Source: a virus (taxonomy: Duplodnaviria; Heunggongvirae; Uroviricota; Caudoviricetes). From it: DNA of 64,000 nucleotides. Positions 1 to 3,000 of this stretch are shown here, in pieces; position 1 is the first letter of the stretch; every line of letters begins with the position of its first letter. The DNA lies in the IMG/VR virus record IMGVR_UViG_2529293141_000015, positions 1,630 to 65,629 of that record. One strand, written 5' to 3'. The position numbers were made by a program.

Positions 1-3000
1 TCACCGACGGTGATATCTTTTTTTACCAGGCCAAATAGCTTCAGGTTAGGTGAGTCAGGGAATCGCTCGGCATAATCAAACGTTCCCGTTCTGATTGCAA
101 AGCAGACAGAAGCCCTTAACTCACCAGCGATCTTTCTGTTTTTCGGAGTATCGGGCACGCGAAGATTTTCGCGCACTCGTTTACCCCTGTACTTAAACGT
201 TATTCGGAGTTTTCCTCCGTGATTTTCAACGCCGGCTGGATAGGCTGAATTCGCCATTGTTCCTCCTGCGTCCAAGAGCACGCTCAGGTTATACTCTTAT
301 GGACAAGAATTAAACATCCTGAGATGGTAAGGGTTGGTTTTTGATCCAAGTGTTGATGGTAGGAAGGTGATAGAGACATTCGCTGTTTTTCTTTGGCGTT
401 CCGTCGGGGGCGATTTGTTTATATTCTCTGCCGTTCATCCACGCACTGTCCCTGGCGCGTAATATTGTTCCTTTTCTCAGGCCTGTTACAGCCATTAAAA
501 GCTCCAGTGTTACCCATTCATTCGCATTTATCTGTACAACAGGTGTGATGACTGGCTGAATGCCATGGTTATGTTGGTTTACTAACTCGCGCATAAGTTG
601 CCTCTGCATGTGTAAGAAAAAACCGCCCGAAGGCGGTTGTCAGTTGATTGATGTACGGCGCATTTTTCGAAGGCTGGCAATATGCTTTTCCTTCTCAATT
701 TCCGCTTTAATCATATGCAGTTCGTTGTGCTCGATTCGCTCAAATTCTTCATTAAATGCACTAATTGAAGTGGCTCTGGTTCTGCCGTCGAGCCTTCGGT
801 AGATCACCTGAGTCAGAGTTACCTTGCATATTTCTACCGGATAGTTGTTGGCATCAACGAAAGACTGCCCGCGCTGGATCAGGACGAACACTGGTTGTAT
901 TCCTTGAGTGCCATATCATAAACACGGCATGCCGAGAGGTGTGTTGTAGTCAACGTCGTTCGTATCCTGAAAAGTCCATGTGTTGTGACGGTAACTTCCG
1001 GGGCTTTGAGTTTCACTGCATCAACGATATGCTGATGTTTGCGCCTTTCGAATATAGAGCTGGATATAACCACACTTGCTGTTAAACCGTAACTTTCAAA
1101 TGTGATTTTCATGTCATTATCCTCGCAGTTAGCCGGGCAACAAAAATAAATAATGTTGTTCCTGCGAATAACAGGATACCGCCCGTCATTAGAGAAAGGA
1201 AAAACAATATTAATGTACGCGGGTTGTTTCTCAAAATATTCTCTCTGTGATTCGCTCACTCTGACAATTCGTTGATCAAGTCACGGTATTTATTCAGTTC
1301 TTGCAACGCCTTACATGCACCCTCCCATCGTTTCTGTTTCCGCCCGGCGCGGCGCGCTTCTTTCCGTGATTTACGTAGCAGGTCACCTATAATGTTGTGC
1401 TGCACTGGCTGCACTGGCTGCACTGGCTGCACTGGCTGCACTGGCTGCACTGGCTGCACTGGGGCGATATTTGGTTTTTTGTCCACTTCCCTTGCAACTG
1501 CCTGCCAGATGCCATTTTTTACAGTTACTACCCCCTGGTTTTTTAACTTCCATAGAGTGTCAATAACGTCATTCAAATCAATATTGAGACCTTTAGAAAT
1601 ACTTTCGGCTGATGCTTTTCCTAATTTGTTCAATTCTGTGAGCACTGCGTTCATTTTTTTCTCCTGATATTTTAATGTCGGTGGGGCTGTTATACGGTTA
1701 GTGAGGTGTCAGCTTCTTCTACCAGCTTTTCCAGTTCATCCAGCTTTCGGGAAAGAATTTCACCAAACAGATGAAGTTCTGCATCTGCTGTAATCGGGAT
1801 TGGAACAAATCGTATTCCACTTCTGGCAAGTTGATTTGCGATTTCCAGACACTGCCTTAATTCAACTGGTGATGCCTTTGTCAACGTCGTTTTTTCGCTC
1901 ATTGGTTTTCTCCAGAAATTTAACAATACCCGGAACCATCTCAATGGATGGTGTGCCGCATTGGTTACCCCATACATCAAATCCATGCGAGGTGTGGCGG
2001 GCGAACAGTTCTATCCGGGGAACATCGCCAAGAAGTTGCACAAGCTTTTCTCGAGCCATATCCGGCTTGCGGGAGTGATCAAGGCGCGGTGCAGTGAATG
2101 ACTGGATTATTCCGGCGTTAATGCGTTCGGGCAGATTTCCTTTCACTGCAAAAAGGCAGTCTTCGCTGTTAGCGCGAGTGGTGCTACCCATACCCATGAC
2201 CAGCTTGTCGGTCTGTCTTTTCCCGCATTTGTTCCAGGTTAATCCTTTCATCGTCACCAGACGAAAGCCCCACGCTTCTACAACCTTCAATGCTTCAAGT
2301 GGTTGTGTAGGCACCCACCACATAGACAACAGGCAATTATCGGCTGCCAGTTCCCATACCGGGAGGCGGCAGATATCCAGAAGACTCATGACCGGATATT
2401 TAAAACTTGCACCGCGTTGACCATCGGTTGCTTTGTCGCGGAATGTCCAGGGGGGATCTGCGTAAATGAGGGTGTATTTTTTCGTCATAGCGCGTTTTCA
2501 AACTCATCAATGTAAAGTCCTGCTTTAATCAGTCGGCGACGGCGTTCGGCCTTTTGCACGTATTCCTCGCGACAGTTTTTTGCTGCGTGTTCACGGCTTC
2601 TGCGACTGAATGGAGGAACGGCATTGCGTGAGCGAGGTGTGTCACGACGAGGATTTGATTCGAGGGAGAAAAAGCGATCAACGATTCCGGTGTCTGTGGT
2701 GAATGGTTCTGAAGCCTTTATTTTCACAACCTTACTGCCCTTTGTCAGGCCGCGAGCTACCTTGTTGAACTCGCAAAGTGAAACACCAAATTTCTCTGCT
2801 ATTTCACTGCCAGTAACAGGACGACCACGAGACTGAATCATCCAGGTGACGCGTTCTTTTAACCCACGGAAGGCACCGGGCCTTCCAGAACGCCTGTAGA
2901 AAGCGATCTGTTTCAAATTTTTGTCTCCAGATATGAAAACCCCGACGGGATGTCGGGGATGGTAGGGGAAGTTACAGGCTTAACGAGAAGCCTTTTCGGG

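Follow-up and report, generated by a model that had tools for sequence, protein, structure and literature searches.

The open reading frame (ORF) at positions 1862–2488, on the minus strand of a stretch of 64,000 nucleotides (nt) from a virus of the Caudoviricetes (IMG/VR record IMGVR_UViG_2529293141_000015, positions 1,630 to 65,629; hereafter the window), encodes gp5, a small adenine methyltransferase of the MT-A70 family. We identify it by sequence as M.EcoGV, and it is likely to be the catalytic half of a phage methyltransferase made of two proteins, the other being PNB-2, the product of the neighbouring gene gp6. Both the gene, under the name M.EcoGV, and its two-subunit biology are already published. 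What is new here is the context of PNB-2, which is most often paired with an MT-A70 enzyme, as fits the published complex, and which heads a cassette accepting at least five DNA-methylase families.

Identification of gp5 and of its source phage

The reading frame runs from an ATG at 2488 to a stop at 1862 and encodes 208 amino acids (aa), with the N-terminus MTKKYTLIYADPPWTF. Between positions 1600 and 3000 the window is 100% identical to P13374, a Shiga toxin (Stx) phage of the Stx2a type, and to its relatives from the 2011 O104:H4 outbreak. The gp5 gene is identical at 627/627 nt to its counterpart in Escherichia coli O104:H4 C227-11, where it is annotated as WP_000163446.1, ‘MT-A70 family methyltransferase’, and is present in a single copy per genome; at a nucleotide identity of at least 95%, it is found in 258/5426 complete E. 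coli genomes. Only two methylases are annotated in P13374, a PstI-like one and gp5. The identification of gp5 as M.EcoGV follows because it is the only MT-A70 enzyme on the O104:H4 Stx phage and its gene is single-copy in C227-11. The account of Fang (2012) given in PMC10810198 places M.EcoGV on the Stx phage of Shiga toxin-producing E. coli (STEC) O104, calls it similar to the PA8 enzyme discussed below and has it methylate GATC in vivo on overproduction; its expression in STEC O104 is described as weak, and gp5 was overproduced in that experiment without PNB-2. In the entry that concerns it in PMC6602927, M.EcoGV is listed as a GATC ‘Dam homolog’ on Stx2 prophages.

Other names of the same series were considered and rejected. 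M.EcoGIX sits on the plasmid pESBL. M.EcoGI and M.EcoGII, which stay silent in the lysogen, resemble gp5 as orphan adenine methylases borne on prophages of C227-11, but unlike gp5 they are non-specific 349-aa enzymes of the N6_N4 type with a DPPY motif, and they lie on other prophages.

The two genes and the catalytic motif are located as follows.

1862–2488, minus strand: gp5, MT-A70 family adenine-N6 methyltransferase, 208 aa (= M.EcoGV, RefSeq WP_000163446.1)
2447–2458, minus strand: catalytic motif IV, DPPW, residues 11–14 of gp5, codons GAT CCC CCC TGG, read from the sequence
2485–2916, minus strand: gp6 = PNB-2, 143 aa, TTG start with GGAG upstream; 432/432 nt identical to PA8 gp6; PHROG 1680

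A probable two-protein enzyme shared with phage PA8

The two-subunit organization was described for gp5 of the O157 Stx2a phage PA8, named M.EcoPA8orf6770P (Gong, Chakraborty & Koudelka, Nucleic Acids Research, 2023; PMC10810198). Compared with PA8 (KP682374.1), gp5 of the window is identical at 207/208 aa, the sole difference being S55 in the window for A55 in PA8, while gp6 is identical at 432/432 nt; the gp7 protein and the gp7–gp6 intergenic region with its terminator are identical too. The locus of the M.EcoPA8orf6770P–PNB-2 holoenzyme thus has the same ATGA overlap between gp6 and gp5, the same terminator upstream of gp6 and the same Ant-like gp7. It differs by S55A and by its host, O157:H7 as against an O104:H4-type strain, and a functional difference is not expected.

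The published experiments (PMC10810198) bear on both subunits. When PNB-2 carrying a His tag was purified, gp5 came with it, and cross-linking gave a 1:1 complex of the two. In phage PA2 the gp5 gene is disrupted by IS629; its lysogens release less phage and kill amoebae less, a defect that is complemented by a gp5 plasmid but not by a DPPW→APPA mutant. Purified PA8 gp5 alone consumed S-adenosylmethionine (SAM) weakly and non-specifically, also on dam− DNA, and activity on GATC was absent when dam− DNA was offered in vitro. With the gp5–PNB-2 complex, on the other hand, SAM use on RNA exceeded that on DNA more than 13-fold, and the complex preferred 16S over 23S ribosomal RNA (rRNA) and 30S over 50S subunits. 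It did not act on RNA taken from lysogens in which the enzyme is already expressed, whereas RNA from lysogens without the enzyme was a good substrate. Boiling the RNA did not reduce the activity, which suggests sequence recognition. It should be noted that the DNA used in this holoenzyme comparison came from MG1655::PA2 (dam+), in which GATC is already methylated, dam− DNA having been given only to gp5 alone.

About 2.1 kb of the window, in the interval from the Ant-like gene to the DUF551 gene (approximately 3650–6060), are extra with respect to P13374. They hold an ORF resembling a ribbon–helix–helix antitoxin, a small lipoprotein gene, a HigA-like helix–turn–helix (HTH) protein gene (4648–4953) and a 246-aa ORF (4996–5736) in the place of the KilA-annotated gene of PA8. 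PA8 shares this arrangement, so that the left arm of the window is PA8-like and not P13374-like.

Catalytic core and predicted fold of gp5

gp5 matches the entire Pfam MT-A70 profile (PF05063, positions 1–172 of 172; E = 5.3e-22, 79 bits for a gathering score of 23.9) and also PHROG 359, ‘DNA methyltransferase’ (E = 8e-117), of whose 329 positions it covers 118–324 only. NCBIfam was searched with gp5, gp6 and the DUF1382 protein encoded downstream, and none of the three matched. In an alignment of 41 homologues (59–88% identity), P12, W14, K141, P142, E160, L161, F162, R164, W173, G174 and N175 do not vary, and the conservation of D11 and P13 is 90% or more. The order of the motifs is that of the beta class: DPPW precedes K141–P142, E160–L161–F162, R164 and W173–G174–N175, which align with segments of MTA1. 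Residues 3–172 align with this ciliate DNA N6-methyladenine (6mA) methylase, DPPW on DPPW (E = 8e-13), which makes MTA1 the closest solved relative by sequence, ahead of METTL3 (E = 4e-5). The AlphaFold2 (AF2) model of gp5 (predicted template modelling score 0.66; predicted local distance difference test, pLDDT, 63; low-confidence loops at 17–25 and 80–109) retrieves MTA1 and METTL3 alike with Foldseek (probability 1.0, E of about 1e-9, TM score 0.5–0.6) and predicts a METTL3/MTA1-like Rossmann fold. On these alignments gp5 is an intact enzyme. Within the codons of its DPPW motif (GCA GAT CCC) lies a GATC at 2455–2458, the reported target of the enzyme.

With MTA1 (Tetrahymena, DNA 6mA) and METTL3 (human, N6-methyladenosine or m6A in mRNA), gp5 shares the Rossmann-like fold, the N-terminal DPPW, the C-terminal SAM-binding motifs and the need of a partner for full activity. 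However, the partners of MTA1 and METTL3 are catalytically dead MT-A70 paralogues (MTA9 and METTL14) together with further subunits, whereas gp5 is a bare 208-aa catalytic domain and its partner an unrelated 143-aa winged-helix protein. No dead paralogue of the eukaryotic type is present on the phage, which carries one MT-A70 gene flanked by genes for the winged-helix and DUF1382 proteins.

The length of PHROG 359 raised the question of a Rosetta-stone fusion between PNB-2 and MT-A70, which we rejected. Read-through or a wrongly called start accounts for the longer homologues; the partial PNB-2 matches share only the N-terminal 55 or so residues and then diverge, as deletion or mosaic derivatives, and none of them is a true fusion.

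PNB-2 heads a cassette of varied methylases

We surveyed 107 loci with PNB-2 homologues, which were not dereplicated, and classified the first methylase found within 2.5 kb downstream.

Stx-type MT-A70: 24 loci, all 24 overlapping the PNB-2 stop
Second MT-A70 type, 44% identical to gp5: 47 loci, 35 overlapping the PNB-2 stop
PF05869 Dam: 13 loci, 5 with the same 4-bp overlap
C5/D12: 6 loci
N6_N4 (PF01555): 6 loci
D12 Dam: 1 locus
None recognized: 7 loci
Locus too short: 3 loci

MT-A70 enzymes account for 71/107 loci in total, and their start lies at the PNB-2 stop codon in 59/107. As a caveat, mosaic phages can conserve a gene order that merely resembles functional linkage. The PNB-2 block frequently holds DndB and additional C5 methylases, and its far boundary is a zf-TraR or a DUF1382 gene. 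The two families differ in size, with 1235 matches across Enterobacterales for the gp5-type methylase and only 65 for the much rarer PNB-2. Moreover, MT-A70 homologues that are 73–78% identical to gp5 occur without any PNB-2, after a ParB-HTH gene or after lysis genes. Across Enterobacterales prophages the PNB-2 cassettes are hypervariable: they also hold C5–D12 fusions as well as two unknown ORFs, each about 250 aa long, and they often begin exactly at the PNB-2 stop codon.

The PF05869 phage Dam (M.EcoVT2Dam of VT2-Sakai; the T1 and HP1 Dam family) resembles gp5 in being a small orphan adenine methylase of phages with an annotated or reported GATC specificity, and related prophages carry it in the same position behind PNB-2 homologues. 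The protein family has no sequence relationship to gp5, however, and it is present in Stx phages without MT-A70; in VT2-Sakai its gene sits in the nin region and not in the left arm. We compared the methylases of the window, P13374, PA8 and VT2-Sakai, which share the small terminase gene (terS) of the window. In VT2-Sakai, which lacks MT-A70, a PF05869 Dam lies between ninB and ninE (16434–16961); P13374 and PA8, by contrast, carry the MT-A70 enzyme but lack an intact nin Dam. The distribution among these terS-sharing Stx phages appears to be complementary: either a left-arm MT-A70 or a ninB–ninE PF05869 Dam. PA8 also carries a remnant of 50 aa, ‘putative DNA methylase’, which lies between Q and the tRNA genes (19626–19778) and for which the window has no exact match.

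Gene order and proposed expression of the gp6–gp5 unit

The elements that surround the two genes are the following.

2972–3649, minus strand: gp7 = PNB-1, 225-aa Ant-like ORF6N protein, upstream of the terminator; Pfam ORF6N E = 1e-19; PHROG 1760 anti-repressor; aa sequence identical to PA8 gp7
2940–2958, minus strand: intrinsic terminator CCCCGACATCCCGTCGGGG (CCCCGAC-ATCCC-GTCGGGG then a T run), between gp7 and gp6; exact 19-nt match to the PA8 terminator, found independently by a terminator scan
1690–1902, minus strand: DUF1382 gene, 70 aa, downstream of gp5; RefSeq; Pfam DUF1382 E = 4e-28

The gp5 gene is oriented leftward, between xis and the recombination genes, behind a strong terminator. 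It is flanked by the PNB-2, Ant-like, DUF1382 and DUF1627 genes, with no adjacent restriction endonuclease. The gp6 stop and the gp5 start overlap as ATGA, and the 3′ end of gp5 overlaps the DUF1382 gene by 41 nt, within which lie the DUF1382 start and a GGAG ribosome-binding site. The TTG start of gp6 at 2916 is supported because the PNB-2 homologues keep the full length of 142–143 aa. In PA8, the terminator upstream of gp6 stops T7-driven read-through, and gp7 is not part of the enzyme, being neither co-expressed with gp5 nor often found with it (PMC10810198). The AF2 model of PNB-2 (pLDDT 68) comprises a winged helix (residues 19–85 approximately), a disordered linker and a long C-terminal helix (105–131). 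A Foldseek search with this model gave weak, generic matches to winged-helix DNA-binding proteins (TFE-alpha, MarR and ArsR families; best E = 0.011) and no specific functional homologue.

From these data the following scheme can be proposed. gp5 would be translated by stop–start coupling at the ATGA from an mRNA shared with gp6, and PNB-2, as a winged-helix protein, would bind it 1:1. As a minimal MT-A70 Rossmann-fold enzyme, gp5 would then use its DPPW pocket to transfer the methyl group of SAM to the N6 of adenine. Since the gp6–gp5 unit lies behind an intrinsic terminator, its expression would be weak in the lysogen, from a promoter of its own, and strong during lytic growth, when N-antiterminated leftward (pL) transcription would read through the terminator. 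An intact DPPW would be necessary for the rise in spontaneous prophage induction and hence in Stx-dependent killing, as shown for the PA8 enzyme.

Further along, the DUF1627 gene (1256–1654, minus strand) contains a 9-bp tandem repeat, CAGCCAGTG, in about six copies at approximately 1385–1450, which encodes (PVQ)n. The gene is annotated at 354, 387 and 399 nt across RefSeq and phage records, and the repeat is therefore probably a variable-number tract.

A preliminary description of the window, made from its sequence, had proposed here an MT-A70 gene with a DPPW motif, coupled to its neighbours and unrelated to the PstI-like methylase of the same phage. The full PF05063 match with DPPW at residues 11–14, the overlaps with gp6 and with the DUF1382 gene and a BLASTP E of 3.3 between the two methylases all bear this out, the PstI-like pair consisting of an Eco57I-type methylase domain (16747–18216, minus strand) and BsuBI/PstI endonuclease domains (15797–16750, minus strand). 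The catalytic residues, the loss of which on alignment would have spoken against the proposal, are intact in gp5 when it is aligned with the 41 homologues. Its placement of the gene in an ‘early-left operon’ holds for the orientation and for the position between xis and the recombination genes, but is weakened by the strong terminator at 2940–2958 (minus strand) just upstream of gp6–gp5. Family, motif, independence and coupling were thus correctly seen, while the prior characterization of the gene was not recognized. In the published work the enzyme acts together with a partner, PNB-2, and 16S rRNA, not DNA, is what the holoenzyme prefers in vitro (PMC10810198).

GATC sites and the terS repeat

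The terS gene of the window (31129–31935) contains a 12-bp tandem repeat, AAATCGATCATG, in 4.4 copies (31265–31317), which encodes IDHEIDHKTDHEIDH and carries four GATC sites at a spacing of 12 bp (31270, 31282, 31294 and 31306). The same terS occurs in 222 phage records, among them VT2-Sakai, where MT-A70 is absent, and phages whose MT-A70 is truncated. The repeat could be a methylation-sensitive packaging or regulatory site. Over the whole window GATC is depleted, with 156 sites for about 250–275 expected, and the scan found no dense cluster (at least five sites in 200 bp), the terS repeat having four. A GATC-rich segment was nevertheless seen at 20067–21131, covering the start of the helicase gene (20226–21746) and the sequence upstream of it, with 13 sites in 1065 bp for 2.6 expected at the window mean (Poisson P of about 4e-6, uncorrected for scanning); the phage replication origin or another Dam/SeqA-sensitive region might lie here.

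In phage P1, the pac site contains clustered GATC sites, the methylation of which is needed for cleavage. We may wonder whether gp5 licenses packaging in the same way through the terS repeat, as P1 Dam does at pac, or whether, as an orphan methylase, it protects the phage DNA from host restriction; both roles had been suggested in the preliminary description. The lack of an endonuclease next to the gp5 gene, the GATC specificity reported second-hand for M.EcoGV and the 12-bp phase of the four terS sites would all agree with such roles, which we nevertheless consider distinctly improbable. PA2, with its gp5 disrupted, is still released as phage and can lysogenize MG1655 (PMC10810198). Because the same terS is present in VT2-Sakai without the gene and PA2 behaves in this way, a dedicated link to terS is not required; a P1-pac-like role of GATC methylation in terS is conceivable, but it could be supplied by the host Dam, which already methylates GATC, or by either phage methylase, and would not be specific to gp5. 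Moreover, restriction at unmethylated GATC is not typical of E. coli, GATC is depleted in the phage genome itself, and the sole demonstrated phenotype is another one, namely higher spontaneous induction and virulence (PMC10810198). The guess of a connection with GATC, on the other hand, agrees with the methylation reported for M.EcoGV in the accounts of PMC10810198 and PMC6602927, and with the two related enzymes described below (PMC7556043).

GATC in DNA or 16S rRNA as the substrate

Several points weigh against the identification of gp5 as the catalytic subunit of a two-protein enzyme with a settled function. Its two published activities, on GATC in DNA and on 16S rRNA, are not reconciled: the rRNA claim comes from an indirect SAM-consumption assay without a mapped modified base (PMC10810198), and the GATC result from an overproduction that is cited second-hand in PMC10810198 and PMC6602927. 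The timing of expression is one that we infer, the scan did not convincingly locate a promoter for gp6–gp5, and for the stationary-phase promoter PMC10810198 cites a personal communication. Finally, gp5 of the window has S55 where its homologues have a nearly invariant A55. This substitution is probably harmless because C227-11 also carries the S55 allele and M.EcoGV was active. Together with the moderate confidence of the AF2 model (pLDDT 63), it could point to an inactive remnant or a mis-annotated ORF, but we regard this as extremely improbable, as the frame is full length with all motifs intact and is conserved in the 258/5426 genomes, the identical allele was active as M.EcoGV according to the second-hand account, and the A55 variant complements in a DPPW-dependent manner. 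The published activity data effectively refute such an explanation.

We read gp5 as an enzyme that would recognize a G-A-T/U-C word. PhiBZS1_p32 of the Serratia phage BZS1 and M.EfaBMDam of Tn1549 are, like gp5, small stand-alone enzymes of the MT-A70 family. Alone in dam− E. coli they confer resistance to MboI and sensitivity to DpnI, while other m6A-sensitive enzymes still cut, and they are thus GATC-specific (PMC7556043); unlike for gp5, a partner of the PNB-2 type is not described for them. In the E. coli K-12 genes rrsH and rrlH, GAUC occurs five times in the 1542 nt of 16S rRNA (3.2 per kb) and three times in the 2904 nt of 23S rRNA (1.0 per kb), numbers too few for statistics. The 16S sites have their G at 15, 281, 705, 1356 and 1530, and the last of them (1530–1533) directly precedes the anti-Shine–Dalgarno CCUCC. 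An enzyme reading G-A-U/T-C would prefer 16S rRNA in a bulk assay, which offers a possible reconciliation of the two activities. A DNA-level route from GATC methylation to induction also exists, because stable 933W lysogeny depends on the host Dam, as Murphy (2008) is cited for in PMC3342100.

On these grounds it is quite possible, if somewhat short of an even chance, that gp5 is a Dam-like, GATC-specific phage DNA methyltransferase and PNB-2 a winged-helix DNA-binding accessory or regulator that heads a swappable methylase cassette. Induction would then result from an altered timing of GATC methylation, through mismatch repair, RecA activation or promoter methylation, and the preference for 16S rRNA would reflect a side activity, perhaps on GAUC words. 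Such an enzyme would fit the in vivo GATC methylation reported for M.EcoGV, the specificity of PhiBZS1_p32 and M.EfaBMDam, the closer relationship to MTA1 than to METTL3 and the absence of an adjacent cognate restriction endonuclease, as for an orphan. It would also fit the varied DNA methylases that follow PNB-2, often with DndB and C5 enzymes alongside, the gp5 homologues that do without PNB-2, the nin Dam of VT2-Sakai in place of the MT-A70 of P13374 and PA8, and the 933W requirement cited in PMC3342100. The tally of loci was not dereplicated, however, and the gene order of mosaic phages can mimic linkage; a second GATC methylase seems redundant, given that all E. coli hosts already have Dam; and purified gp5 alone had no GATC activity on dam− DNA in vitro. 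Also difficult to explain without a genuine RNA modification in vivo is that RNA from enzyme-expressing lysogens is a poor substrate.

This last result, together with the more than 13-fold preference for RNA and the preferences for 16S rRNA and the 30S subunit (PMC10810198), argues instead for a dedicated 16S rRNA m6A methyltransferase, which we consider a less probable yet tenable explanation. PNB-2 would target gp5 to the 30S subunit, and an altered translation, probably at initiation, would shift the balance between lysis and lysogeny, GATC methylation by overproduced M.EcoGV being an off-target artefact. The 1:1 complex with PNB-2 and the DPPW-dependent phenotype (PMC10810198), the identical two-gene unit in the window and the MT-A70 fold common to the mRNA writer METTL3 are in agreement with it. 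Yet the assay mapped no modified nucleotide, its DNA comparator was already Dam-methylated, and three independent MT-A70 enzymes are cleanly GATC-specific in vivo. The threefold GAUC density of 16S over 23S rRNA (from small numbers) would produce a 16S preference without special targeting, and the four other DNA-methylase families preceded by PNB-2 homologues are unexpected for a 16S-specific targeting subunit. Both activities would be accommodated by a partner-switched, dual-substrate m6A writer, acting alone on GATC in DNA and with PNB-2 on GAUC in 16S rRNA, the PNB-2 family then being generic partners or regulators of a swap-in cassette of at least five methylase families in lambdoid prophages; we consider this unlikely. 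If it were true, the 16S GAUC at 1530–1533, by the anti-Shine–Dalgarno, would be a direct route to altered translation initiation.

Implications for Stx phages

Whichever the substrate of the enzyme, the gp5 gene has medical relevance: the near-identical PA8 enzyme raises spontaneous Stx-prophage induction and toxin output, and the gene is on the phage of the 2011 O104:H4 outbreak. The label ‘16S rRNA methyltransferase’ may be incomplete because PNB-2 heads a DNA-methylase cassette and the holoenzyme was never offered unmethylated GATC DNA. The remaining interest of the system thus lies in the context of the PNB-2 cassette and in whether the control of virulence goes by way of the DNA or of the ribosome.

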